The translations under genes were made by a program, and so were the position numbers. 64,000 nucleotides of DNA from an uncultured Acidobacteriota bacterium (GTDB lineage: Bacteria > Acidobacteriota > Terriglobia > Terriglobales > Acidobacteriaceae). Shown here in pieces: positions 1,952 to 62,037 of the stretch. The first letter of the stretch is position 1. The number at the start of each line of letters is the position of its first letter. The stretch covers positions 11,217-75,216 of the forward strand of contig CAWBRT010000004.1 in assembly GCA_963791145.1 (NCBI GenBank), given 5' to 3'. The notes below the pieces were generated by a model. It made no database searches and was not told the DNA's origin. It saw nothing but the letters and a program-made list of their open reading frames with translations.

Positions 1952-3774
1952 CGAGTGCCGCAATCTCCTTGTCAAAAACGGACCAGACCTGTTCGCTCAT
2001 GCTCGAGAAGAACTCGCGGGTAATGAATGGCCCCAGACCCAGGGTCTGATTGGGACGGTCGAAAACTTCGGAGGGTAGCGTGTAATCCGATCGCTCGAAG
2101 CCCTGCTTACGTTCCAGCCACAAGCCCCGCATGTAGGCGCGACGAACGGTGGCCAGCAATTCCGCGGCGGTGATCTCAAGTCCTATCTCATGCTTGAGAG
2201 CGTTGACCAGCAAATCGGGGCTTGTCCCATTGAAACTTGCAAAGTCCCGTCATGTCATCCCGCATCTGGTAGAGGCCGCGTTCGGTGATGGCCTTGACCC
2301 AATACTCCAAGGACATGTCTCGCTCAGCCAGCGGCAAAAGGAGAGTGGCCATCGACATGTGGCCGCCGGCGATGGCAAATGGATATCCCGGATTGGTATC
2401 GGGCAGGTAGGCCGGCAATTCCACTCCCTTGCAGTGCATGGCGTAACCGGTTTCTCCCACTTGCTCGGATAAGCCGTTTACGCCATGCCCGATCTCGGGA
2501 TACCGGCCCGCCGCCGTACCTTGAATCAGGTCCTTGACCTTTTCGACTTCGCCAAAGGTGGCCCCGTTGCAGATTGGTTTTTCGGGATGCCGCTCATTGT
2601 AGTCGAGCACATAGGAAATCGTGGCCCCGAGTGAGATCTGGTCCATTCCGTTGTGGTCGACCATGGAAAGAGCTCACATGCCTGGTTGGGATCGTGAATT
2701 CCCAGATTAGTCGACAGCAGATTCACGGGTTCATAATCGAACTTGGAGAGGAAGCGCCCGCGCTCGCCGGGCGCGGTCTTTTCGTAAAGTTCTTGTGGCA
2801 GTGGATGCCGCAACGGAAACACGATTCCGCCTTAATGTCGAATTGCGGCTCGACCTCGGGACGCGACATCAGCTCGGGTTTGCCGTCCCCCTTCGGCCTG
2901 AAATTGTTCTGCGGTAATAAGTTGACCGGCCCCAACATTTCGTTGCCGCTCCAGGTGCCGCCGAGCCCGCCTTTGTCCTTCTCGCGAAACTTGCGCGAGC
3001 CGGGGCCCGTGCCGATTTCGCGGTTGATGTCGCGGATCTCCGGCTTTACCCTCTAGCTGGTCGTGCGCCTGCGCCACGATGGCGATCACGTTCTTGTAGC
3101 CCAGCACGCTTCCCATGCCGCCGCGGCCCGCGAAGCGGCACTTGTCATCGCCCGATTTCAGAAGGTTTTCGGTGCTCAGCGCCACGGCGCCGAAATAGCA
3201 ACTCTGATAGTGTTCGCCGGCCGGCCCGATTACCGCAAAATGCGCATCGGCATATTCCTGCTTCAGAAGGTTAATTTTCTTGTAGCACGCAAGACCCAGC
3301 AGATGGCGGGCCGGCTTGAATTCCACCTTGGGTCCGTCGCCGCCACCGCGAATTACGATCATGATCGGCTCACTGGCGCGTCCCTCAAAAATCAGTTCGT
3401 CGAGCCCGGTCCATTTCAGTTTGGATCCGAACTTGTCGCTGCCTGCCGACCACATAGCGCCGGGCAGTCCCTTGTTGGAAACTTTCAGTGGACTGTAGGC
3501 CGAAAAGTAGGTCCGTAGCCCTGTCATGAGGCTCGAACCCGTCAGGATGCCGGTGTTCACGATAACGGGGTTTTCCGGTGAATAAGCCCGGGTAACAGTG
3601 CGCGCAGCCAGAAATTGAAGGGAGCGGCCCACCCCACCCAGAACCTCTTCCAGATTTTGGCAAGCAACCTCTGCGATGCGTATACCACGGGAAGACAAGT
3701 CAATCGTGCAGCGAGAATAAAAAACTGCCTTGGGATCGTTTCGTGTTTCGTTGAAAGATAAGCGCACGGCGCAT
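1920..3774 (-). pseudogene. Tungsten-type aldehyde:ferredoxin oxidoreductase (AOR) gene split over at least four frames
   Basis: AOR-like segments in the ORFs 2832-3857 (N-terminal domain: GIRIAEV...LGGVGRSLQFLAAR...IVIRGGGDGPK), 2526-2822, 2188-2664 and 1920-2213 (C-terminal domain); a poly-T tract sits near the N-terminus. Confidence 0.65.
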
Positions 3775-4421
3775 CGTCTCCTTCTCAATCGCAGCAAGGT
3801 CGCGCCCTGGGCTGGACGCTTTGTTGTCAAGAAACGAGACGACGATACTTCGACCACTTAGGCATGTCAAGCCGCTTGAGGGGGCGCGTCCTTATGATCT
3901 GCGGAACCGGCTTGATGCGCACCGGATTTTCAATTCGACACACCTGGCGGAGCAAACACCTGATCAGGCAAAGTCCAGGGTCCGTAAGCCAGCAAGGGCA
4001 ACCAAAGCAGCGAAAGGTGGGAAAAGGCCGGCGAGCGGTTGCCCGCGATTGCAGCTCCTGAGGCCGTGATAGCGCGAGGACTCACAGGATGTCGTGACAT
4101 ACGTCACATTCTGTATCACGCGCTCGCATGTATTATCGCGCAACTTTTGATTGTGTGTGGAAAATTGTGCTCTGAATATTCTTTGTTTTCGACCAACATG
4201 TCGTTTCGGGGTGATCGCCTGTCTAAGGGGCGCTGGCAATTCTGAAAAAGCGCTGGTTTTCCACGTGGACTGATCAAGAGAGGCAACAGACTTGGTCTGC
4301 GGGACATATTGGCGAATTCGCATGAACCGCGATCACGAACGGGTTTACGATCAGAGCTTTCCGACCAGTCTGCAGGGGATAAAGATCAAGCAATATCTAG
4401 CTCACAAAATAAGGGGGAAGT

Positions 4422-13433: not shown

Positions 13434-13446
13434 GCCCCCTTGGATT

Positions 13447-13550
13447 GTAGGAGAGCGAGAGGAAGCCGCCTAAAGCCGGGCGGCTTTATTTTCCGGTATG
13501 TATCTCTGTGGTGGAGTGCTGAACCGAAGGTAAACCGCTGGATCCCACTG
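13447..13550. repeat. ~100-bp direct repeat, copy A (terminator hairpin plus conserved downstream segment)
   Basis: agcgagaggaagccgccNaaagcNgggcggcttt ... ctgaaccNNaggtaaaccgctgga, shared with 14505-14615 at roughly 75% identity. Confidence 0.5.
13458..13495 (+). terminator. Rho-independent terminator after the SDR gene
   Basis: GCCGCCtaaagccGGGCGGC hairpin followed by TTTATTTTCC. Confidence 0.55.
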
Positions 13551-13563
13551 TGTTCCTCGCAAG

Positions 13564-14222
13564 CTATTGATTAAGCCCGCGTTCGTTATAGGTCGCAAGT
13601 TGCAGCTCGAAAACAGCTTTGCGAATCCGACGCAGGTAGATTTCTCTGTTGTCCATAAATTCAAGGCCTACAGCATAGTTCGTCTTCTCAGCGCGGCACC
13701 GGCGGACCACTCCGTTTATGTAGACCATTTGCCCATGAAAATACATCTCCAAGACGATAAGTTCACCGAGGGCAGGCCTATCGCGCGCGATCAGACAAGC
13801 ACCCGATTTGGATAAATCTCGCAAAATGGCCGTTCGCCAAAGCTGACTATCCAGTTGGGAGTATCGTATTTCCACATCACCCATGAGTACGCGAACGGAA
13901 GCGCGGCGCTGAATCTTTTCACCTGCGGTAAGAGGTCTGAGCACGATTCTTGGGGGGCATGGGAGAGAATAGCAGTGATAACGGCTCTGCAAATTGTGAC
14001 CCCGGAGCTGCCCGGCTTCTGCAAGAGGGCTTTTGTGCCGACCTTGCAGCTCGATAAAAAGCTACCCGTCGAGTCTGTGATCATCAGTACAACCTTGTCA
14101 TTTCGAAGCTCGTTGATCACTGCGGTGTGCAAGTTTCCTGCATCGTCCTTTATGGACGCAAAGTCTCCCCCAGCTTTGGTACGAATTGCAACACGGTCAT
14201 TGATCTTAACTTGGCTCAGCAC
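13564..14222 (-). CDS. PilZ-domain protein; coding sequence spans two frames, so a probable frameshift near 13990
   Basis: C-terminal frame (13564-13992) carries the PilZ motifs RRASVRV ... DLSKSGACL; the N-terminal ~85 aa lie in the overlapping ORF 13791-14222. Confidence 0.5.
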
Positions 14223-14504: not shown

Positions 14505-14615
14505 ATTCTAGCGAGAGGAAGCCGCCCAAAGCTGGGCGGCTTTTCCATTTGCGGTATTCCTCTTCCTGGGAGGCTGCTGAACCACAGGTAAACCGCTGGA
14601 CCTCAGACGTTGATG
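14505..14615. repeat. ~100-bp direct repeat, copy B (includes a perfect 8-bp-stem terminator hairpin GCCGCCCAaagcTGGGCGGC followed by TTTT)
   Basis: Shares the hairpin and downstream tail with copy A; lies just after the VapC stub. Confidence 0.5.
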
Positions 14616-23187: not shown

Positions 23188-25013
23188 TTGTGTTCCTCAT
23201 ATGTTGCAAATCCTGAATACAGCGCGTCCAAGCGGAACGGGATGGCTAAACTACTGTCGGTGAACGTCGGACTTCCACGCGATATCGCAGTGGAAAGGCC
23301 GCACTGTGCACACCGGGATCTGGAAGAATCCGGTGCACGGCCGCTGTCGGGTCGGCCGGTTGAATCTGGCGGGAGACGGTCAAGGCGACTTGGCCGGGCA
23401 CGGGGGCGAGCATCGAGCCGTCTTCGTCTACCAGATTGAATCGTATCGCTATTGGCAGGAGCAGCTGAAGAGGACCGACTTCGTCCACGGACAGTTCGGC
23501 GAGAATTTCACGATCGAAGAGGATTGCCCGACGATGCGGTATGCATCGGCGACCGTTATCAGATCGGCAGCGCGCTGTTCGAGGTCACTCAACCTCGCGT
23601 CACTTGCTATCGCGTCGGCATTCGGATGAACGAGCCCCGGATGGCGGCATTGCTGACCTCCAGCGGACGGCCGGGGTTCTACTTCCGCGTTCTGCAGGAA
23701 GGCGAGGTGGGTGCGGGCGACGAAATCGTGAAGGTGGGAGAGGCGGAGGAGCGAATGACCGTCGCGGAGATCAACGCGCTCCTCTATTTGCCCAATCATG
23801 CACGCGATCGGCTGGAGCGCGCATTGCGGATCGAAGCGCTTTCGCCCGGATGGCGCTGGTTCGTTTGAGGCGTTACTGCAGAGCCCAACAACTGCCGCGG
23901 GAAGTGGAAACGCGGGGCTCGCGCCGGCAGCAGCCGCGCATCCGGCTGCACCAGGATTTCGGCCGCTCGCGGTGACGGCAATCGATCGCGAGTCTGCGGA
24001 CGTGCTCTCGTTGACGATGCAGAGCCCGGACGGTCATCCGCTGCCGACGGCTCTGCCGGGCCAGTACGTGGTTGTGCGTCTTCAGCCGACCGACCGGCGG
24101 CGCGCCGTTCTTTCGCAGCTACTCGCTCTCGGGTCCTCTCTCGGCGGAGCGCTATCGAATCAGCGTGAAGATCGAGCCGAATGGAGCGGCCGGAACCTAC
24201 CTGCGGGAGCATGTCCGTGTGGGCGATGCTCTCGACGTCAGCTCGCCGCGCGGAAGCTTCATTCTTGCAGTCGGGAGAGCGGCCGGTCGTGCTGCTCAGC
24301 GCGGGAATCGGGGCGACGCCTGTTCTGGCGATGCTGCACGCGCTGGCGGAGTCCCGCTCAGCACGGCAGGTCCTGTGGCTGCACGCCGCTCGCGATCGGC
24401 AACATCATCCATTCGCCGCCGAAGTCCGCCGCCTCATGCTCGCGCTCCCGCAACGGCCGCAGCTACGTTTGTTACAGCAGGCCGGGCCCCAACGACAAGA
24501 AGGGTGAGGATTTCGACGCTGCCGGTCACCTGTCGCGACCGGTGTTCGACGAGGTCGGTGTTCCACGAGAGGCGGACGTCTACCTCTGCGGGCCCAACTC
24601 GCTTCATGGCAGACATGAAAGAGGCGCTCACTACTATGGGTGTCGCGCCGGAGCGGATTCACGTCGAAATCTTCAACGGCAGCGAGTCGATGACTCCGGG
24701 CGTCGTCGGCGCAGCGAAGGCGAACTCCGCATGTGCCGCGTGACGACGGCAACACCGGTCCGCTGGTATCGTTCGCGCGCAGTGGCATCGCCGCACACTG
24801 GAAGGCGTCGGCTACCAGAGCATTTTAGAGCTGGCCGAGGCGTGTGATGTTCCGGTCCGTTGGTCGTGCCGGACCGGTGTTTGTCACAGCTGTGAGAGTG
24901 GTTTGGTTTCGGGGGCGGTCGTCTACGGGCCGGAGCCCCTCGAAAAGCCCGCCGACGGCAACCTTCTCATTTGCTGCTCGCAACCGGCCGGCGACGTCGT
25001 CATCGATTTGTGA
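23188..25013 (+). pseudogene. MOSC domain + FAD/NAD(P)-binding reductase + 2Fe-2S ferredoxin fusion gene, split over at least six frames
   Basis: MOSC motifs in 23188-23868 across three frames (GDGQGDLAGHGGEHRAVFVY; FEVTQPRVTCYRVG); FNR-like segments (RPLAVTAIDRESADV; RYRISVKIEPNGAAGTYL; VVLLSAGIGATPVLAML); ferredoxin CRTGVCHSCESG...LICCSQP at the end. Confidence 0.6.
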
Positions 25014-25149
25014 GCCTGACCGGGGTTCGGAAGAATCACACCTCTAACTTCCCATAACGCGGTTTTGGGCCCCTGCCCGTAGTGGAAGGAGAGGCTGACA
25101 AACGCCAGAGGCCGATAGCGGCCAGAGGGTCTCAGGCGGAGAATGATGG

Positions 25150-25947
25150 TCAACCTCGTGGCTGTGCCTGCCGTACCATCTCTACTAGAACGTCTCTGGT
25201 TTCCGCCGGACTGTTCACCTCCCGCAACAGCGCGATGCGGGCGCCACGCACGCCATCCGGAGTCTTCAGCCGCAGATGAAAGCCCAGGCGGTCGATCGAA
25301 GTCATGATTGCTTCCTGCGACTCGACGCCGGCGAAACTCCGCGCCAGCAGAATGAGCGCGTCTTTATGCTCGGCATTCATGTGTTGCGCGATTCCAGATG
25401 CGGCGTCAGCCAGCGGGTCGGGTTGGGCACGTTCATAGTCGTGTGCGGTGATCCAGCCCATTACGCCGAAGCCGCCCACGTAGTAAACGTCCACGACTTC
25501 CATGCGGTAAAAAGAAAAGTCTTCGTAATCTACCCAGTATTTGCTGTTCTCGTAGCGGGCCAGGTAGAGCTTGCGAGCTTCCGCAATCTCTGGCTGTTCT
25601 ATTGTTAGAACCCTGCCCAGTAGAGTAACCCTGGACGCGCCCAGCGGATCGCCGCTCGCGTCAGGTTGTGTTACCAGCAAACTGGCATGCGGGTTCGCCA
25701 ACAGATTGTGGGTGTGCATGGCCATCGTACTGATAAGAAAGATGGGGCGCCCCCGCTGGTCGGCTCCGTAGGGCATAACCGAACCGAAGGGAAAGCCCGG
25801 CTGCTTGCGTGAGAGGGTTGAGAGGCTCCCGATACGGCCCAAGTAGGCGAGGGTGCGAGCGCGCTCGGCGAACGAAGGCTCAGGCATAGCAGGCTGGCCA
25901 GTTGCCGGGCCACCGCCTGCGTGCTTTCCGGCCGATGAAGATGACAC
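25150..25947 (-). CDS. Pyridoxamine-5'-phosphate-oxidase-like FMN-binding protein with a DUF2470-type C-terminal domain (HugZ-like)
   Basis: GFPFGSVMPYGADQRGRPIFLIS...SLLV split-barrel motif. Confidence 0.55.
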   Translation of the reverse strand: MSSSSAGKHAGGGPATGQPAMPEPSFAERARTLAYLGRIGSLSTLSRKQPGFPFGSVMPYGADQRGRPIFLISTMAMHTHNLLANPHASLLVTQPDASGDPLGASRVTLLGRVLTIEQPEIAEARKLYLARYENSKYWVDYEDFSFYRMEVVDVYYVGGFGVMGWITAHDYERAQPDPLADAASGIAQHMNAEHKDALILLARSFAGVESQEAIMTSIDRLGFHLRLKTPDGVRGARIALLREVNSPAETRDVLVEMVRQAQPRG

Positions 25948-27226: not shown

Positions 27227-27464
27227 GGAAACCTCAGCCGCTCAGGCCAGACCGTCGTCTTCAGTCTGTATTTTGCAACCGATAGCGCAAAACAGCAAAG
27301 GCACGAGCGCTAGTTACTTGCTCCACGGGATTTTAGTGTACCGGATACGGCGAGTGAAATGCTGGAGGATAGCTTTCTAGCGACCAAGAACAAACGCAAC
27401 GATGGTGTCACCACTCTTCCCGGTAGCAGCTTCCGCCCGCGCGAGAAGCTTTGCTTCGAGATCG

Positions 27465-27985
27465 TCAGTGTCTGCGTGGAGTTCGCACGCGGCGATCTGT
27501 TCCGTGGTCGCACCATGGAAGCAAAGTTCGCAAACACCGAAGCCGCCTTCCGAGGCGTAGCGGTGGTCCGAAGACGCGGCATGTCATCGGGACGCGCCGT
27601 ATACAGATCGCATGTGCCGGTCTTGGGATCAAGCACCGGGCAAGGTTCGTCATTGGCGAAGTCTTCGAAATCTTTGCCGATCCTCGTCGAGTATTCCTGT
27701 GGATGGGTCTCCCGGAAAGCCAGCGCGTAGGCGGCGTACTGCAGCACGGGCGCGCTGGCGCACCCGCTTCGCCCGCTCGGGATCCTGCTGCTCCAGTTCA
27801 GCCAGACCGTCTTGTAACCTGATGGCGTCCAGTTGCGTGATAGCGAACACCCCAATGCAGCACTGAGTACAGCCTGGGCGACACACCAGCCAGGGGCCGC
27901 TCCTGCGAGCGGAGTCTTCGAGCGCAGCGTCCACGATCTGCACCAGTTCACGGTCGGCACCGCGGAGTGACTCAGGGCTGCGCAT
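27465..27985 (-). pseudogene. YkgJ-family (UPF0153, CxxCxxCC) Fe-S/zinc cluster protein gene split over three frames
   Basis: CRPGCTQCC in the ORF 27650-27985, CPVLDPKTGTCDLYTARP in the 27310-28041 frame, and MTCRVFGP in the ORF 27465-27653. Confidence 0.45.
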
Positions 27986-28283
27986 GTCGACATCCTATCC
28001 CACCCACCCGCACAATGCGAGTGACCGCACGCCAGCAGCACACGTCACTCCATACGTTTAGGATGGGCCCATTGTGCGTTCCCCAAAAAACATACGGCCA
28101 CTTACTCCCGACGCATGTCGTGTCCATCTGCGCAGGCACCTCATTCCTGATTGACACCGTCAACAACACTTTCAGAAGCCGGGCCAGAAGTCAGGTTCTG
28201 GGAAGTCAGCCTTGGTCAGGAGGCGACAGCTCTGATTTCGCAAAATGCAGTCTCGGGATATCCCAGTACTGCTGCCAATGTCT

Positions 28284-29483
28284 TTACTTACTTATGGCCG
28301 CGATCGACTTGCCGGTTGGCAGAAGCCTGCGATAGATGCTCTCAATCTGTTGGTGGCTCAGCTTCTTGGGATTGTTCACTAAGAGCCTGGTTACTTTAAG
28401 GGCCGCCCGTGCGAGTCCATCGATGTCCTTGTCTTCGACACCATAGTCCCCCAAGTTCTGCGGTATTCTCAATTCGGCGATCCATTCCTGAATACGCCCA
28501 ATTACTGCTGAACCAAGGGTCGATGTATCCCCGTGCACACCCATTGCCTTCGCCACCTCGGCCATCCGTGGCTGAATCGCGTCGGCATTGAATTCCGTGA
28601 CATGCGGGAACAGCATCGAGTTGGAAACGCCGTGCGGAATCCCGAACTTCCCTCCCAATGGGTAAGCCAACGCGTGAACGGCGGCGGTGCCTGCCGACGT
28701 TATTGCCATTCCTCCATAAAGCGCTCCCAGCATCATTCCTTCTCTGGCCTCGAGGTTGTCGGGCTGTTTGTACGCGATCAAGATATTCCGGGAGACCAGC
28801 CGCATGCCCTCGATGGCGAACAGATCGGCGATAGGGTTCGCCTTCGTCGAGATAAAGGATTCGAACGAGTGGATGAACGCGTCCATGCCGGTGAATGCCG
28901 TCACGAACGGCGGGAGTCCTACGGTGACCAGCGCATCGATCAGGACGAGCGCGGGAAGGAGATACCGGCTGACAACACCGATCTTCAGTTCCTGTTCCGG
29001 CAGGGTAACAATAGCATTCGGGGTTGCTTCCGATCCGGTTCCCGCGGTGGTCGGGATGAGTACGGTCGGGATCCCGGGCTTTGCAACCAGGTTTACACCC
29101 AGCATGTCTTCCAGCTTTTGGCTGTTGGTGCGCAATACTGCCACCAGTTTCGTGGCATCCATGACACTGCCGCCGCCAAAGCCAATCAAGACATCGTAAT
29201 TCTCGCCCGCGGTCTGCCGGTGGACCTCTGTAACGTTCGCGGCGGTCGGTTCAGACAGAACACTATCAACTACGCTCACCGCAATGCCGGAGTTGCTCAA
29301 CTGCTGGACAATCTGATCCACCATGCCACTGTCTCTGAGTGACGGCTGCGTCAGAAGCAACACGCTTCTGGCACCCAGTGCAGATTGCAGTTCATGGCTT
29401 AACGTGGCCAAGCACCCCGAGCCCGCAACAATCTCGCTCGCCGTAGCAAACTTATACGGCTTCGATACGTTCTTGATCGACAT
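28284..29483 (-). CDS. Iron-containing alcohol dehydrogenase (Fe-ADH family)
   Basis: GFGGGSVMDATK and later histidine motifs (HGVSNSMLFPHVTEFN). Confidence 0.85.
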   Translation of the reverse strand: MSIKNVSKPYKFATASEIVAGSGCLATLSHELQSALGARSVLLLTQPSLRDSGMVDQIVQQLSNSGIAVSVVDSVLSEPTAANVTEVHRQTAGENYDVLIGFGGGSVMDATKLVAVLRTNSQKLEDMLGVNLVAKPGIPTVLIPTTAGTGSEATPNAIVTLPEQELKIGVVSRYLLPALVLIDALVTVGLPPFVTAFTGMDAFIHSFESFISTKANPIADLFAIEGMRLVSRNILIAYKQPDNLEAREGMMLGALYGGMAITSAGTAAVHALAYPLGGKFGIPHGVSNSMLFPHVTEFNADAIQPRMAEVAKAMGVHGDTSTLGSAVIGRIQEWIAELRIPQNLGDYGVEDKDIDGLARAALKVTRLLVNNPKKLSHQQIESIYRRLLPTGKSIAAISK

Positions 29484-29974: not shown

Positions 29975-30055
29975 CGCGATCCCGAAGTCGGCTTCTGGGA
30001 ACTCAGCCTCTGGCTTCCCAGAACGCGGTTTCGGGGTCCCGAAACCGAACCGCTT
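29975..30055. repeat. REP/MITE-like palindromic element, compact copy
   Basis: cccgaagtcggcttctgggaACTCAGcctctggCTTCCCAGAACGCGGTTTCGGGgtcccgaaaccg: two nested hairpins. Confidence 0.55.
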
Positions 30056-30176
30056 TATCGGCTTTGGCCCATGGCCAACGTCCATATCCTGACGTTTCGG
30101 TGCAACTGTCTGCGGGCAAAGGAAATTCAGGTCTTGACATATCACAATATGCAATTATAATATCGCAATCTGTTAT

Positions 30177-30725
30177 ATGAAACTAGGCGACAAGCTTCGC
30201 TACCTGCGCCTGATGGAAGGTACGCTTCGCGGCCTGGGCCGGGAGATGACCCAGCAGGAATTGGCGCGGGCTCTGAAGGCTGAGTCAGGCAAGAGCCTAA
30301 GCCAGTCATACTTGTCACAAATAGAAAATGGCGCTCGCCCCCACTTGACGAACTCTTCGCGTATGCTGCTCGCCAGGTTTTTCAAAGTGCATCCGGGATA
30401 TCTCGTGGACGACCCCGACGGGTATCACGCCGAGTTGTTGTCGGATTTGCGCGTCCTGGAAGACACCCTCGATCTGTGGCTAATCGCGGGCGCCGAACGT
30501 TTCCGCCGCGATCCGGAGATCCGCCACGCGCTGTTGCAGTTGGCCAAGCATGATGATTCGCGCAAATGCCTGGTCCTGCTGGCGGCAATCCTTGAGACTC
30601 CCAAACTCGTGGATCGCTTGATGGAAGTGCTGAAACCGGAGAGAGCGGTCGGGATGAGGGCAAACGCGCGCCAACCGAGTCAGAGCATCAGCGGCGCTAT
30701 CGTAGGGCCTGGGGGGAACCCATGA
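30177..30725 (+). CDS. XRE-family HTH transcriptional regulator with an uncharacterised C-terminal domain
   Basis: HTH segment TQQELARALKAESGKSLSQSYLSQIENGARPH; ATGA coupling to the next gene. Confidence 0.65.
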   Translation: MKLGDKLRYLRLMEGTLRGLGREMTQQELARALKAESGKSLSQSYLSQIENGARPHLTNSSRMLLARFFKVHPGYLVDDPDGYHAELLSDLRVLEDTLDLWLIAGAERFRRDPEIRHALLQLAKHDDSRKCLVLLAAILETPKLVDRLMEVLKPERAVGMRANARQPSQSISGAIVGPGGNP

Positions 30726-31363
30726 CGATTACTGACATGTACCTAATCTGCTTCATCGTGGGCCTGCTGTTGAGTCTGATCTCCTTTATCTTTGGCACGC
30801 TGCATCTCCACGCACAACTTCCGCTCATCGGACATGCTCCCCACCTGCCTCATGTTGGCCATACGGGTCCGCAATCTCCGCATGGCAGTGGCGGGTCAGA
30901 GGTGCCGCTGTTCAACTTCGGGACGGTAACCGCTTTTCTTGCCTGGTTTGGAGGTGTCGGGTACCTGTTGACACGGCACACCAGCCTGTATGCAGTTACG
31001 GCCGTTGTGCTCTCGTCGCTGGCAGGCGTCGTTGGTGCGGCTTTTGTCTTCCTGTTCGTCGCCAAGGTGCTGATGAAGCATGAGAAGAACCTGGACCCGG
31101 CGGACTACTCAATGATCGGCGTTCTCGGATTAGTAGTTAGCCCCATTCGTCAGGGTGGCACAGGTGAGATTGTTTACTCGCAGGAGGGCGTGCGGTGCGT
31201 AACTGGCGCACGAAGTGATGCGGAAGCGACGATTTCGAGGGGCGTGGAGGTAGTGGTGACGCGGTACGAAAAGGGAATTGCCTACGTTCGGCCATGGGAG
31301 GAGCTTTCCGCTTCGGGGCAGGGCGCCTCGAAGAACGATTCGGTACAAGTAAGGAGCGACTAG
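30722..31363 (+). CDS. NfeD-like membrane protein (short YuaF type)
   Basis: N-terminal TM helices and a C-terminal OB-like soluble domain (GTGEIVYSQEGVRCVTGARSDAEATISRGVEVVVTRYEKGIAYVRP); sits before an SPFH gene as in yuaF-floT. Confidence 0.55.
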   Translation: MTITDMYLICFIVGLLLSLISFIFGTLHLHAQLPLIGHAPHLPHVGHTGPQSPHGSGGSEVPLFNFGTVTAFLAWFGGVGYLLTRHTSLYAVTAVVLSSLAGVVGAAFVFLFVAKVLMKHEKNLDPADYSMIGVLGLVVSPIRQGGTGEIVYSQEGVRCVTGARSDAEATISRGVEVVVTRYEKGIAYVRPWEELSASGQGASKNDSVQVRSD

Positions 31364-31381
31364 CTCGCATCAAGGAGGCAC

Positions 31382-32852
31382 ATGCCATTCCAGATTCCAA
31401 TCGATGTCTGGATCATAGCTGGACTTTTGGTACTGGTTGTTCTAGCTCTCTTCGGGGTATTTGCGAAGCTGTACCGGAAAGCCGGCCCGCACGAGGCGCT
31501 GGTCGTCTTCGGCTTCCGCGGCACACGAATTGTGAAGGGGCACGGCACAGTTATTGTTCCGATGATTGAAAACGCCCTTCAGCTTTCGCTTGAACTGATG
31601 TCGTTCGACGTGGCGCCAAAACAGGACCTCTACACCAAGCAGGGCGTTGCCGTCACTGTGGAAGCGGTCGCGCAGATAAAGGTGAAGTCCGACCCCGAAT
31701 CGATATTAACCGCAGCCGAGCAATTCCTGACAAAAGATTCCGACCAACGGGAAGGCCTTATCCGCCTGGTGATGGAAGGCCACTTGCGCGGCATCATCGG
31801 GCAGCTGACGGTCGAAGAGATAGTCAAGCAACCCGAAATGGTCTCCGACCGCATGCGGTCCACCTGTGCTGATGACATGAGCAAGATGGGCCTGGAGGTG
31901 ATCTCGTTCACCATCAAGGAAGTCCGCGACAAGAATGAGTACATCACGAACATGGGCCGTCCCGACATCGCACGCATCAAGCGCGATGCCGATGTGGCCG
32001 GCGCGGAAGCGGAGCGTGACACAGCCATCAAGCGTGCCAATGCTCAGCGTGAGTCTGCCGTCGCCAAGGCGCAGGCGGATCAGGAACGAGTGATGGCCGA
32101 GACTGCTCTCGCTAGCCAAACAGGCGAAGCGCAGCGCGATCTCGACGATCAAGAAGGCTCAATACCTCGAGAGATCACGCAAGCGCCAACAGGCGCAGGC
32201 CGACAAGGCTTACGAGATCGCAGACTAACGTCATGCAGCAGCAGGTGGTGGTTGAGGCAGGTGAAGGTGCAGCAGGTGGAGAAGGAGCAGCAGATCAAGG
32301 TGCAGGAGGCCGAGATCGCGCGCCGCGAAAAGGAACTGATCGCAACGGTGCTGAAGGAGGCGGAGATCGAGCGCCAGCGCATCGAGACCCTGGCGCAAGC
32401 CGAGAAGCAACGCTTGACGATGGAGGCCGAAGGTAAGGCCGCATCGATTCGCGACCAGGGCGAAGCCGAAGCCGAGATCATCTTCAAGAAAGGTGAGGCC
32501 GAAGCGAAGGCCATGAACGTGAAGGCGGAAGCTTTCCAGGAGTACAACCAGGCGGCGGTCATCGATAAGCTGCATCACCGGCATGCCGGAAGTGGCTGCG
32601 CGCCTTGGCGACACCGCTGAGTCAAGTGGATCAAGCATCACCATGGTTTCCACAGGAAATGGAGCATCGGCAGGAGTGAACAAGATCACCGGTGACATTG
32701 CGCAAATGGCTGCGCAGGTTCCTGCGCTGTTCGAGGCGCTTTCCGGCATGAGCGTGCAGGAAATGCTCTCGAAGGTACGACTAATCGGAGACAAGTCTCC
32801 AAAGCCGGGGCGGGGCGATGACACGCCCGCATCCGGCGATTCGAAGAGATAA
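31382..32852 (+). pseudogene. Flotillin (SPFH/band-7, FloT-like) gene with several frameshifts
   Basis: SPFH domain intact in 31382-32100; the EA-repeat region (VKVQQVEKEQQIKVQEAEIARREKEL...) and the C-terminal VSTGNGASAGVNKITGDIAQM segment are in other frames, with three frame changes within ~130 bp around 32120-32240 and one near 32575. Confidence 0.65.
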
Positions 32853-32955
32853 CAATCACCCCAACAGACGTAAAGTAGCGCCTGTCGGGGACCCGGCCGT
32901 CGGGCGCACTCCTCGTCGAGGTTTTTCGGGGAAAGGCGCAGTAGAAGGAGGTTCT

Positions 32956-33627
32956 ATGGCACTGCTGGAAAGAGTCGCAACCCTGATTCGCGCAAACCTG
33001 AATGATCTGGTGGATCGTGCGGAAAACCCAGAGAAGATGATCAAGCAGATTATCCTCGACATGCAAAATCAGTTTATACAGGTGAAAACACAGGTGGCGA
33101 TTGCACTGGCCGACCTGCACCTGCTGGAGAAGAAAAAGCAGGAGTACGAGGCCGGCAATCTGGAATGGATGCACAAGGCCGAGTTGGCGGTGGAAAAACA
33201 GAGAGATGATCTGGCGCGGGGGGCGCTAGAACGAGCAATGTCTTTGTCCCAACTGGCAAAGAGCTTTGACGAGCAAATTGGCGACCAGAGGACACAAGTC
33301 GATCTCTTGAAGAGTGCGCTCCGTGATCTCGACCGCAAGATTACCGAAGCGCAGGCGAAAAGCGACCTGCTGATCGCTCAGCATAGACGTTCACGGGCCG
33401 TGAGCCGCGCCGCTGATGCCAACTTCAAGGCCGCGAATAAAAGCAAGTCGGGAGCACTCGACCGCTTGAAGACGACTATTCAGCAGGAGGAGGCAATCGG
33501 CCAGGCGAAAGTCGAGCTTTCTGGCCAGGAGATCGAGGAGAAATTCGCATCCCTGGAAAGGGAAGAGGAGATCGAGCGGCTACTGCGGGAAATCAAGACG
33601 AAGGCTCGCAAGGGCCTTACGGCGTAG
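32956..33627 (+). CDS. pspA: PspA/IM30-family protein (phage-shock protein A / Vipp1-like)
   Basis: GAAGGAGG RBS; N-terminus MALLERVATLIRANLNDLVDRAENPEKMIKQIILDM is the PspA signature; coiled-coil remainder. Confidence 0.8.
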   Translation: MALLERVATLIRANLNDLVDRAENPEKMIKQIILDMQNQFIQVKTQVAIALADLHLLEKKKQEYEAGNLEWMHKAELAVEKQRDDLARGALERAMSLSQLAKSFDEQIGDQRTQVDLLKSALRDLDRKITEAQAKSDLLIAQHRRSRAVSRAADANFKAANKSKSGALDRLKTTIQQEEAIGQAKVELSGQEIEEKFASLEREEEIERLLREIKTKARKGLTA

Positions 33628-33870
33628 GCGGTGAGTCTCACTCTTGGTCGGTTATTAGGCTTTTCTTATCCCGGATTCGGAGCGAACGGAAGAGATAGAA
33701 TGGGCCACTCGCGAGTGTTCGAAGGCGCATGGTTTGGTTGCCTGTCACGTAGCAGCTTGGCTATGCAGTCAGGTGTCGGCTGGTGAAAGATGTTGAGCCG
33801 CATTAACCGGTTACGACTCAGTGGGGGCTTTTGTCGTTTGATCCCTCAGGCCGAACTTTGGCGAGAAGTT

Positions 33871-34150
33871 GTCCCGAAGTCGGATTCTGGGAAGTTAGAA
33901 GATCTGGTGGCAGTTGCTGTCAATTGTGGGCAAGTGGCGCCAATCCGGGAACTGATCGAGAGCCGCCCGGATCAGTACCGATAAACGCCCCTTGATCCAT
34001 CTATTCGCGGCGGCCCGCGCGGTTCTGGATTCGCGGATGCCTAACCGACTTTTCGGTACTGATCAGCTTGGTCCCGGACTATACCTGGATCGACGACCAT
34101 CCGTCCAGCACCGTCGTTCCTAACTTCCCAGAACGCGGTTTCGGTGTCCC
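33871..34150. mobile_element. MITE-like element: same arms as the REP-like family, but separated by ~220 bp of unrelated sequence
   Basis: Left arm gtcccgaagtcggattctgggaagttag (33871-33898) and right arm cctaacttcccagaacgcggtttcggtgtccc (34119-34150) form an imperfect inverted repeat. Confidence 0.45.
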
Positions 34151-34329
34151 TGGAGATCATCAGCTTCCGCGCGAAGGGAGTACTTCAACAATTACTTCCG
34201 AGTTGTCGACTACTCAGACATGATTATCGCGTTTGCGATGTCATCGGAACGATCCGATAATGACTATTCGCCTGAAGGTTAGCTGGTCGGCGAGCCGATT
34301 CAACGGCCGATGAGCACGCGATCAGGCCC

Positions 34330-35106
34330 TTGACTATGAAGAAGCTCCCACGAAAAGCTCGACGCACGGGAAAGCCAGATCTGGGTTCAGCCCACGCGGA
34401 CCGGCATCCGCCTCATTTCTCCCGAGAGATTTCCGTCCTTTACGACGATGATGCCGTGGTCGCTCTCAACAAACCGCCCGGACTCTTATCTGTACCCATC
34501 AAAGGCTCCAAGGCTCCGTCCGCTTTGTCTCTGCTTAATGCAGATCTCAAGCTGAAGAGAGAACGGGCATTGGTGGTGCATCGAATCGATCGGTTCGTCT
34601 CCGGCGTTCTGCTGTTTGCTAAGACCAAGCGGGATCGCGATGCGCTGGTAAAACAGTTTCTCGACCATACTCCAGCACGGCACTATCTCGCGGTAGTGCG
34701 CGGGCGACTCGACGCTCCAACGGGGACGCTCGTACATTATTTTCGACGTGCAGGAGTCTTTCAACAGTTGCGAACGGCGAGAGATCCTCAAGCTGCTCGT
34801 GCCGAACTTCGATATTCCGTCGAACGCCTTTATGCCGATACTTCGCTTGTTCGGATTGAGTTGGGGACGGGACTGCAGAATCAGATCCGAGCACAATTCT
34901 CGGCCATGGGGCACCCGGTCATTGGTGATAGAAAATACCATCCGACGGAATCGTCAGAGCCGCTCATTGCTCGCGTTGCTCTTCATGCTGCGCATCTTCA
35001 GTTTGTTCATCCACGTTCTGGAGAGAGTATCTCGATCGATTGCAAATTGCCCGCCGACTTTCGGTATCTGCTTCGAGAATTGTCCCAATCAAACCGTGCG
35101 CACTGA
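34330..35106 (+). CDS. RluA-family pseudouridine synthase
   Basis: HRIDRFVSGVLLFAK catalytic-Asp motif (HRLD-type). Confidence 0.8.
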   Translation: MTMKKLPRKARRTGKPDLGSAHADRHPPHFSREISVLYDDDAVVALNKPPGLLSVPIKGSKAPSALSLLNADLKLKRERALVVHRIDRFVSGVLLFAKTKRDRDALVKQFLDHTPARHYLAVVRGRLDAPTGTLVHYFRRAGVFQQLRTARDPQAARAELRYSVERLYADTSLVRIELGTGLQNQIRAQFSAMGHPVIGDRKYHPTESSEPLIARVALHAAHLQFVHPRSGESISIDCKLPADFRYLLRELSQSNRAH

Positions 35107-35180
35107 TAGCTCTCGTATCAGCGGGTGGCGAGATGAGAATCGTGCCCCCGTCACGGGCAATCGGGAGGCTGTTTCGGACC

Positions 35181-35233
35181 CTGAAGCCTGGTTCAGGAAA
35201 GTTAGACCCAATCTTCCCAGAACGCGGTTTCTG
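35181..35233. repeat. REP-like palindromic element, compact copy
   Basis: ctgaagcctggttcaggaaagttag-acccaat-cttcccagaacgcggtttctg. Confidence 0.5.
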
Positions 35234-35347
35234 CAGTTCGCCATCATGCAGCAGGCAGGACAGGTGGAGAGATCGTTGGGATTGGTCGCGATCGCCGGAA
35301 AACTTCCAACCGGCGCCGACGAACCGCGTCCAGCGCAGCGTACCTGG

Positions 35348-60735: not shown

Positions 60736-62037
60736 ATGACTGACCCCCAAAAAGGTGCGCGGCAGGAGAACAAACTCTCAAAGCAAGAGATCAGTCCGCA
60801 CGAGAGTATCGCGGAGAACATCGATCAACTCTTGCATGTGCCGGAAACAAACGCCGACGTTCATCTTGGGGATGTGAACGACGTTTTGTCGGAAGGTAAT
60901 TCGATCAGCGCAAAGATCAAGACTCTCCAAGCGACGAACGAAATTGCGGCACAACGGCTAAAGGAATGCTTGGGAAGCGACCCAAATGCGACCATGCCGT
61001 TGACACAACAACTCCAGCGCCTCATTGCCGATCAGGCCCAGGAAATCAAAGAATTGGAACGGGCTGAATTCCGAAGTCGTGTTCTTTCAACTCTGCGACA
61101 GCCTCAATACAGCGCATTGCGGGATGTTTTTGGCTCAGTTGTTGAGATGCGGCTAAAGTCCTCGACTTCAGAGTCCTCTTTAATCCGGCTTTTAGCCTCA
61201 AACTTGGCCCATTTGCTGCGATCGATTAACGATCTGTGCGCCTCGTACATTCGGGCTTTGGGAGATAGCGAAAAGGCGCGAGGAAAGTGCGAAGCTGATT
61301 TGCGAAAACGGGCTAAGAAGGACGCAGATTCCAAGTTCAGTGGAGCTTTTGGCGATTTCTTCGCGGAGATGGCAGCGGTTTCTGAACTCAGCAAAATGGG
61401 CGTCACTGAGTTTGAGCCTGTATTAACAGGCGTAAACGAATCAGTCGATTATCGGGCGAAGCGTGCGGGAAAGGATGTGTGTATCGAAGTCAAAAACATC
61501 CGCGCACCTATTACGATCTTTGACTTTTGCGCAGACGAGCTTCGACGGCTTCATGCTGAAGCTCCAACTGATTATCCATTCCGACTCACGGTTCGCTGTG
61601 AAACGGATAACACCATTACGGCGGCACAACAGGATGCAATCACTACATATCTTGCTTCTGTGAAGGGCCGCAAGGTTCCGTTTGAGGATTCGCTTAAACT
61701 TGAGCATGGCGTTAGGGTCGTACTCACGGTTAGGGCTGGATCGGGACAGGCGATGCAACTCAGGGCAATGCGAGTGGATGCTCCCGATACACTGAACATC
61801 GAAGGCTTCTTGAACAAGGTGCACGATAAAACGATTAAAGCAATGCAGCAGTTCGACAGCTCAGGTTGTTCAACACAACTGCTGGTCCTGAATATTATGA
61901 CCCCGATGGCGAGTCTGGATCAGACCTATGTTGACGCGGCCAGAGAACAGGTCCGGCAGGATTCAAACTCGACTGTCGAACCTGTGATCCTTTTCTATCA
62001 TGCCTTGATTCTCGATGAAGGAACCGACTCCGATTAG
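60736..62037 (+). CDS. Hypothetical protein (433 aa): helical/coiled-coil N-terminal half and a possible PD-(D/E)xK nuclease-like core
   Basis: Lower GC than surroundings; motif pattern E(AEMAAV)...D(SVDYR)...E-V-K(CIEVKN) in residues ~215-260. Confidence 0.45.
   Translation: MTDPQKGARQENKLSKQEISPHESIAENIDQLLHVPETNADVHLGDVNDVLSEGNSISAKIKTLQATNEIAAQRLKECLGSDPNATMPLTQQLQRLIADQAQEIKELERAEFRSRVLSTLRQPQYSALRDVFGSVVEMRLKSSTSESSLIRLLASNLAHLLRSINDLCASYIRALGDSEKARGKCEADLRKRAKKDADSKFSGAFGDFFAEMAAVSELSKMGVTEFEPVLTGVNESVDYRAKRAGKDVCIEVKNIRAPITIFDFCADELRRLHAEAPTDYPFRLTVRCETDNTITAAQQDAITTYLASVKGRKVPFEDSLKLEHGVRVVLTVRAGSGQAMQLRAMRVDAPDTLNIEGFLNKVHDKTIKAMQQFDSSGCSTQLLVLNIMTPMASLDQTYVDAAREQVRQDSNSTVEPVILFYHALILDEGTDSD

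Follow-up and report, generated by a model that had tools for sequence, protein, structure and literature searches.

We analysed a stretch of 64,000 nucleotides (nt) from an uncultured Acidobacteriota bacterium (GenBank assembly GCA_963791145.1, contig CAWBRT010000004.1, positions 11,217 to 75,216 of the forward strand; here, the window), in which five copies of a short palindromic repeat (here, E0 to E4) are all intergenic, between Pfam-supported genes. E0 occupies the convergent gap between an open reading frame (ORF) at 23798-24847 (+) and a CREG/PNPOx-like gene at 25150-25947 (-). E1 lies between a hypothetical gene (27310-28041, -) and an iron-containing alcohol dehydrogenase gene (Fe-ADH; 28284-29483, -) and is antisense to both, and E2 lies in the divergent gap between Fe-ADH (-) and an XRE operon (+). 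About 100 nt downstream of E2 is a perfect sigma-70 consensus at 30134-30161 (+) (TTGACA, 16 nt, TATAAT; 12 of 12 positions); the XRE-type gene begins 16 nt further on, at 30177. E4 is found in the convergent gap between RluA (+) and an M20 peptidase gene (-). The genes between the elements run in both directions, have their own promoters, and are ordinary housekeeping genes with conserved orthologues.

The repeat is built from a right box (R), a left box (L) that is an inverted variant of it, and three further modules (M4, M2, and T). Family copies were profiled with a hidden Markov model (HMM; nhmmer), and related contigs and loci used for comparison carry L-numbers (L003, etc.). A sensitive profile search of the whole window returned five elements and no others, all on the + strand between 25,012 and 35,234, as follows.

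25012-25069, + strand: E0, a singlet; degenerate M2-like module, then R box at 25048-25069 (cTTCCCATAACGCGGTTTTGGG, two mismatches in the 20-mer).
25032-25074, + strand: profile match of E0 (nhmmer E 9e-8); repeat family D1.
28183-28257, + strand: E1, a medium doublet; L box at 28184-28205 (two mismatches), 30-nt spacer, decayed R box at 28236-28257 (TTTCGCAAAATGCAGTCTCGGG).
29978-30038, + strand: E2, a compact doublet; L box at 29981-30002, 11-nt loop, R box at 30014-30035 (exact consensus).
33873-33985, - strand: left half of E3; L box at 33873-33894, inverted M4-M2-like module, inner repeat arm at 33970-33984.
33986-34049, no strand assigned: centre of E3, between the inner arms; no homologue in any fetched locus.
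34050-34145, + strand: right half of E3; inner repeat arm, M4-M2 module (about 34074-34123), R box at 34124-34145.
34146-34170, + strand: T module (GTCCCTGGAGATCATCAGCTTCCGC), directly after the E3 R box.
34180-34220, + strand: partial second module, M4-M2', lacking an R box (ATTACTTCCGAGTTGTCGACTACTCAGAC; repeat pair I3).
35177-35234, + strand: E4, a compact doublet; degenerate L box at 35180-35201, 11-nt loop, R box at 35213-35234 (exact 18-mer).

The original prediction, made from the sequence of the window, had described three copies, now E2, E3, and E4. All three are there, and their arms are far beyond chance. The R arm (TTCCCAGAACGCGGTTTCGG) occurs exactly at 30015 and 34125, with one mismatch at 35214 and with two at 25049, i.e., four matches against 0.02 expected from shuffles. 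The L arm (CCCGAAGTCGGnTTCTGGGAA) occurs exactly at 29981 and 33873 and with two mismatches at 28184 (0.00 expected). A repeat search clusters the same sites as families D1 and D2 and inverted pair I19. As a total, however, three was too low, since E0 (25012-25069) and E1 (28183-28257) have to be added. Under the arm definition of that prediction, the 7-nt spacers of E2 and E4 hold, and the wide spacing in the 280-bp copy, given as 220 bp, is 221 nt between the 25-nt arms of the repeat search. While the R arm is indeed shared by all three copies, the L arm of E4 is degenerate (6 of 22 positions mismatched). A weak L-like match at 61069 was dropped; it stands alone, and the family HMM does not pick it up.

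The core of the family is a 21- to 22-nt R box (cTTCCCAGAACGCGGTTTCGGG), weakly self-palindromic, of which an 18- to 22-nt form (TTCCCAGAACGCGGTTTCGGG) recurs across contexts. Its inverted counterpart, the L box (CCCGAAGTCnnnTTCTGGGAA), is a fixed variant of the R sequence, as is seen when the reverse complement of the L box, TTCCCAGAAnCCGACTTCGGG, is set against TTCCCAGAACGCGGTTTCGGG. Fourteen distinct L-R doublets were collected, with spacers of 9 to 229 nt and 84% of the stem positions paired. L and R differ at the same positions in all of them; therefore, the hairpin of about 20 bp that the two boxes form has two invariant G-T/G-U positions and a 2x2 internal loop. The left side of its foot is GG(T/G)CCCGAAG, and the right side is TTTCGGGG(A/T)CC. 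In L026, each box also folds individually. Most family members consist of an R box with no L box within 330 nt.

When all copies are aligned on the R box, conservation is not limited to the arms. An M2 module (TTGCCGACCACTCGCCCAGAAACACACCGCTGGC; ..TTACTTCCGAGTTGCCGACCACTCGCCCAGAA..) lies directly 5' of the R box in most copies and is preceded by M4 (GTAGTTCCACGATTACTTCCG). Directly 3' of the R box, many copies, at least eight of them independent, carry T (GGACCCTGGAGATGATCTGCTGCCCC); it follows the R box in L052, L053, L055, L060, L063, L064, and L087, as it does in E3. Because T lies beyond the right arm, the conserved element extends past what had been taken for its terminus. (A sigma-54 promoter was considered for T and is ruled out by the spacing, which is GG-N9-GC and not N10.) The order M4-M2-R-T recurs in different combinations and is found twice in a row in L055. 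Further modules may be attached upstream. A longer composite repeat of 376 to 398 nt that ends in an R box is present at L004 4438-4813 and L042 2847-3244 (82% identical, with different flanks) and also in L003 and L081. It includes other hairpin modules, e.g., AATTCCCTGCTAACAGGGAA and ATCAGGGAATTAGATTTCCCTGAT, and has no L box at its other end. In this arrangement of pieces, the family is a mosaic of a few conserved parts, like the bacterial interspersed mosaic elements (BIMEs) of Escherichia coli.

The 280-bp copy, E3, had been read as one with a 220-bp insert and terminal inverted repeats of about 28 bp. Neither point was borne out. An M4-M2 module makes up the last 50 nt before the E3 R box (91% identity to L078 across 57 nt), and the family HMM matches this half at 34074-34179 (E 1.7e-17). 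The first 60 to 110 nt after the L box align, on the opposite strand, with M4-M2-box singlets of other genomes. Within them, 33924-33955 matches the M2 module of L018 in reverse (BLAST), and the family HMM matches the - strand at 33955-33885 (E 0.025). A 15-nt inner inverted repeat (33970-33984 / 34050-34064, 93% complementary) continues the symmetry, so that inverted similarity extends about 110 nt inward on each side. Since the stretch by the L box is an inverted M4-M2 unit and an inner inverted repeat lies behind it, E3 consists of two long M4-M2-box units that form an inverted doublet, with about 65 nt at its centre.

Other doublets bear on the origin of the compact forms. A second long doublet is present in L048 (169-nt spacer), and medium doublets with spacers of 25 to 45 nt are present in L031, L055, L075, L053, and the window (E1). 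Doublet spacers have common starts (CTCAGCC..TGGTCAG) and common ends (..CTCTGGC). Because the 11-nt loop of the compact copies joins such a start, CTCAGCC, to such an end, TCTGG, the compact hairpins would most simply be centre-deleted derivatives of long doublets, rather than the long copy a compact one with an insertion. E1, at first sight a left arm on its own, proves to be a full doublet, since alignment with its orthologue in L026 (about 2560-2640) shows an intact, near-canonical R box there. In the window, this R box has changed at 7 of 22 positions while the flanks differ by 9%. An R box that decays faster than its flanks is behaving like selfish DNA.

Outside the window, the exact 18-mer TTCCCAGAACGCGGTTTC was scanned for in one genome per species (1.2e12 positions). 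This gave 41 matches against about 17 expected by chance, most of them in coding sequence of unrelated phyla that have nothing in common beyond the 18-mer. Family-type flanks accompany it at 10 loci in seven Acidobacteriota metagenome-assembled genomes (MAGs) labelled Korobacteraceae, Terriglobia, or “uncultured Acidobacteriota” (L003, L004, L005, L018, L026, L030, L031, L035, L037, and L038). A scan of JGI metagenome contigs yielded 46 loci, 42 of them belonging to the family. Taken together and with duplicates removed, the two sets give 41 distinct genomic contexts, from peat-soil Acidobacteria. The window comes from a close relative of these MAGs and is 94% identical to L005 over 3 kb and 91% identical to L026, a Korobacteraceae MAG, over 2.6 kb. 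The 18-mer is identical in several species whose coding DNA differs by 10 to 20%. Representative MAGs hold one to three exact 18-mers each, a count to be read with the knowledge that MAGs under-assemble repeats, while the window has five copies in 64 kb. About one-third of the loci nevertheless hold a second copy within a few kilobases, and many contigs break off at or within the element, which a multicopy repeat would lead one to expect. No protein family recurs among the flanking proteins of the family loci; the repeat is therefore dispersed rather than linked to a gene. A literature search for the box sequences gave no relevant match. The part of the original prediction that spoke of a REP-like palindromic family (REP, repetitive extragenic palindromic sequence) is thus well founded, the copies being intergenic, hairpin forming, and present in about 40 nonhomologous contexts of related Acidobacteriota. 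They belong to a small, previously uncatalogued family of palindromic intergenic repeats of Korobacteraceae/Terriglobia.

Adjacent family elements, 1 to 11 kb apart, are co-oriented in all 16 pairs that were available (from the window and from L026, L030, L035, L038, L043, L047, L048, L053, L055, L060, L064, and L075), some of these pairs resting on L-box matches with four or five mismatches. Neither GC skew (20 of 32) nor, with crude ORF calls, the direction of flanking genes is significantly related to orientation, the upstream gene being co-directional in about two-thirds of cases. Homology between close relatives stops at element edges in three comparisons. Between the window and L026, it ends at 28258, just after the E1 R box; between the window and L090, a contig carrying the RluA orthologue, it ends at about 35165, just before E4; and between L055 and L064, it ends at L055:157. 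The gene order of L089 (6582-13521; RluA 78% identical) is HI0933-like (-), RluA (+), and a fragmented Fe-ADH (-), with a resolvase-ParG-HTH cluster nearby, whereas the window has 7 kb between HI0933 and RluA, occupied by ADH and the flotillin operon. The M4-M2' module upstream of RluA is at the same place in the orthologous contigs L090 and L091, both of which start inside it (at window positions 34191 and 34198), and more weakly in L088. Together, the homology ends, the clustering, and the co-orientation fit a strand-specific, replication-coupled spread and recombination at the repeats. These features may also stem from breaks or misjoins of short-read assemblies at repeats, several contigs starting or stopping within the element, and the homology ends may in addition reflect that only element-bearing loci were examined.

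The borders of the 14 doublets show no direct repeats, i.e., no target-site duplication (TSD). Folding with RNA parameters gives E2, an almost perfect hairpin, -39.3 kcal/mol on the + strand (z = -4.8) versus -34.9 on the other strand; E4 folds no better than shuffles (z = -1.4). With DNA parameters, the + strand advantage of E2 is gone (-17.8 versus -19.0). This asymmetry is suggestive and does not decide between RNA and single-stranded DNA. The long copy, E3, taken as 291 nt, also folds better than shuffles (z = -3.3).

Among known repeats, the REP sequences and BIMEs of E. coli and Enterobacteria are likewise short imperfect palindromes that are intergenic, lack TSDs, and occur as singlets, doublets, and clusters. 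With 21 to 22 nt and partial self-complementarity, both boxes fit a short intergenic palindrome. The Y and Z types of E. coli REPs are two fixed variants; in BIMEs, as with L and R here, two such variants pair in inverted orientation in a mosaic with a small set of conserved linkers. In our family, the fixed variants combine with M4, M2, T, and a further 250-nt module in differing arrangements. On the other hand, its sequence is unrelated to REPs, a GTAG foot is absent, the apparent copy number is much lower, co-orientation is strict, no REP-associated tyrosine transposase (RAYT) is linked, and the units are longer (about 60 to 110 nt including M4-M2). REPINs (REP doublets forming hairpins), which are associated with RAYTs, are described in Bertels and Rainey (2011; PMC3116915) and PMC3337134 as inverted doublets, of which singlets are interpreted as remnants, as they are here, and whose master sequence is conserved in relatives. 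The 14 L-R doublets and the 280-bp inverted doublet conform to this architecture, in that a REP-like unit is doubled in inverted orientation around a spacer to form a long hairpin, and a master sequence is conserved across related species. Unlike in typical REPINs, the spacer is not fixed (9 to 229 nt), and no single-copy RAYT flanked by the same repeat was found. The Correia/NEMIS miniature inverted-repeat transposable elements (MITEs) of Neisseria resemble the family in having 60 to 300 bp, inverted arms, an intergenic location, and internally deleted variants, Correia elements too occurring in shorter, internally deleted forms beside full-length ones.

Taking these likenesses together, we consider it probable, by a modest measure, that the five window copies belong to a new mosaic family of the REP/BIME type with REPIN-like doublets, specific to Korobacteraceae/Terriglobia. 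The units would be nonautonomous and would spread, or be homogenised, through single-stranded hairpin intermediates. An enzyme encoded by the host would act on these intermediates in trans, most plausibly a transposase of the HUH/Y1 (RAYT-like) kind; the target would then not be duplicated, and one strand would be preferred. By analogy with REPs, the hairpins would probably also serve, incidentally, as stem-loops where transcripts end. That the units move, which enzyme moves them, and whether the host is affected are what we infer; the existence of the family, its modular structure, the inverted-doublet nature of the long copy, the co-orientation, and the missing duplications are what the repeats themselves display.

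Several observations weigh against this assignment. (i) None of the 53 window ORFs encodes a transposase or integrase, nor is there a tyrosine recombinase or Y1_Tnp domain (PF01797) among them, and a motif scan of all family loci gave no Y1 transposase. (ii) The two Koribacter RAYT clades that were sampled, in 16 loci of which none is known to come from a genome with this family, are associated with unrelated repeats and have no R or L box nearby. (iii) GTAG or CGTC does not form the foot of the hairpin, GTAG being confined to some M4 modules at a distance of about 55 nt; a conserved tetranucleotide at the foot is given for REPs in PMC3733652. (iv) The number of copies per genome seems low, subject to the under-assembly noted above. 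Classical REPs occur in hundreds of copies per genome. (v) The identity of the 18-mer across species fits selection on a host function equally well. (vi) No filled and empty orthologous sites were found among the fetched loci, in which the only comparable case is a 95-nt indel beside an element. This indel (L047 6463-6557 versus L031 2762/2763) distinguishes two contigs that are 99% identical and starts 10 nt outside the R box.

What chiefly separates the family from a REP/REPIN system is the lack of a linked enzyme. For the comparison in (ii), two RAYT-like proteins of Koribacter versatilis were rebuilt from a supplement; they have thousands of homologues, and 16 encoding loci were taken. Loci of the aba_1552 type (L092 to L099) are always flanked by GTATCAGGGCACGGCTTCAGCCGTGCC and those of the aba_3477 type (L100 to L109) by GGGGCACCCC-type ends. 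The RAYT genes of the aba_1552 clade present a textbook REPtron, being preceded by one or two copies of the different and highly conserved REP GTATCAGGGCACGGCTTC(C)AGCCGTGCC and followed by a single inverted one (L092 9941-9962 and 10499-10520; L094 and L097, about 1850-1990 and 2500-2540). Downstream of aba_3477-type Y1 transposase genes, L105 (1700-2150) and L102 (3950-4190) contain tandem units of about 100 nt, GGTCCTTCGACTTCGCGCC...CGCTCAGGATGACAG, which are another acidobacterial repeat family. Y1-linked repeat families are on record from this phylum: the class 3 TnpA_Y1 'REPtron-like' repeats of Solibacter usitatus, where about 600 copies are reported (PMC6006769; class 3 repeats read C[CA]GAGCCGCGACCGTnAGGGAGCGG, Table S1), and the TIRtrons/TIRYT of K. 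versatilis, a repeated family of terminal inverted repeats (TIRs) tied to a Y1 transposase (PMC3733652). These repeats of Solibacter and Koribacter come from the same phylum, in one case the same bacterial family, and are likewise hairpin forming, intergenic, and present in many copies, with HUH/Y1 enzymes proposed to act on them. Their sequences (class 3, aba_1552, and aba_3477 type) are different, and none of the three occurs in the window.

An unlikely alternative is that the R box, with M2 and T, is a cis element of the host, either a protein-binding site or a processing signal, kept by selection; a nucleoid protein, a regulator, or a determinant of transcript ends or RNA stability would be examples. 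It would account for an 18-mer that stays identical over 10 to 20% coding divergence, for positions kept in orthologues (E1 in L026; M4-M2' upstream of RluA in L090 and L091), for the strict co-orientation of neighbours, and for wobbles that stabilise the + strand with RNA but not with DNA parameters; the excess of co-directional upstream genes points the same way but is not significant. Against it, the elements keep no fixed distance or orientation to genes and have no recurrent neighbour family. E2 occupies a divergent gap ahead of the XRE promoter, E1 runs antisense to each of its neighbours, an orthologous R box decays faster than its flanks, and selfish repeats typically show such mosaic, truncated, and centre-deleted forms. 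A further reading is a structured noncoding RNA family, a multicopy small RNA or ribozyme transcribed from the + strand. The wobbles that favour the + strand as RNA, the z score of the 291-nt copy, and a small stem at the M2 loop, TGCCGACC, whose pairs differ between copies (GAGT/ACTC, GAATC/GATTC, and GTGAGT/ACTCAC), speak for it. But low folding energies follow trivially from inverted repeats, Rfam (15) gave no match at the gathering threshold in the window and 16 related loci and none overlapping an element at E<=10 (24.9-35.4 kb), RNAalifold found no consensus structure in 22 M2-R units, and the L/R stem covaries no more than shuffles do, 81 of 500 of which reach its value. There is also no associated promoter, E2 lying upstream of the nearest one, and we hold this to be very improbable.

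The original prediction had likened the 280-bp copy to a MITE with TIRs of about 28 bp. As a classical MITE, the element would be a deletion derivative of an insertion sequence (IS) of the DDE type, with the L and R arms as its TIRs, and would be mobilised by the transposase of the parent, making TSDs. Inverted arms of about 22 to 28 nt, a length of 58 to 280 bp, noncoding content, multiple copies, and the composite of 376 to 398 nt that ends in an R box between different flanks (L004 versus L042) would all suit a MITE. MITEs are bounded by TSDs, though, and here the 14 doublets have none; the arms are not termini, as M2 on the inside and T on the outside are conserved with the R box; most copies have only the R box; and the composite lacks an L box at its other end. 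No transposase is encoded in the window or beside the elements. The window, about 0.7 Mb of related loci, plasmids, and viral contigs gave no autonomous or full-length IS that has these ends, nor did the family match any plasmid or viral contig. We therefore think a classical MITE improbable. Still less probable, to our mind, are cassette-type recombination sites, attC-like or other, in which co-oriented palindromes bound gene blocks exchanged by a site-specific recombinase. Integron attC sites, including those of clusters lacking an integrase (CALIN), are also co-oriented imperfect palindromes with an unpaired internal spacer and a variable terminal loop that separate genes or operons. The stem, internal loop, stem, and terminal loop of 9 to 229 nt, the co-orientation everywhere it could be checked, the five copies in 10 kb each separating one gene or operon, and the homology ends at 28258, about 35165, and L055/L064, together with the order HI0933-RluA-ADH in L089, recall such sites. 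If they were, Acidobacteria would have a cassette-like plasticity system that lacks integron signatures, and both the stops in homology at element edges and the delimitation of each gene or operon within 10 kb would be explained. The attC cores R'' and R' (RYYYAAC/GTTRRRY) are absent from the outer ends, however, where the stems read CCCGAAGTC and GGTTTCGGG; GTTAG/CTAAC occurs only on the inner side of the arms in some copies. The 64-kb window encodes no integrase or recombinase, the enclosed genes are bidirectional, promoter-bearing (sigma-70 at 30134), and housekeeping, and the breakpoints may be assembly artefacts or reflect the sampling of element loci only.

As a REP/BIME-type family, the repeats at present add an uncatalogued but otherwise ordinary case to a known kind of element. 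Soils and peat are rich in Acidobacteria, whose genetics has been little studied, and a defined repeat family provides a marker for Korobacteraceae genomes, an account of assembly breaks in MAGs, and a handle for the enzyme that maintains it. If the co-orientation and the coincidence with breakpoints survive in long-read genomes, the family would become a model for strand-specific (replication-coupled) repeat spread and for repeats that shape gene order outside Proteobacteria.

Two other features of the window were noted. A direct repeat of about 92 nt (13454-13547 / 14510-14605, 1056 nt apart, 79% identical over 91 nt) starts with a hairpin that resembles a terminator, AAGCCGCC..GGGCGGCTTTTTT, and lies to either side of a PilZ-domain gene (13564-13992, -). 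The homology of the window to L005, 94% identical, stops at 13439, just before this repeat; L005 has an R-box singlet 216 nt past the equivalent point, and the window has none there. At 2188-3857 (-), an aldehyde:ferredoxin oxidoreductase gene is split into AFOR_N (2832-3857) and AFOR_C (2188-2664), which could be due to a frameshift, a pseudogene, or a sequencing error.

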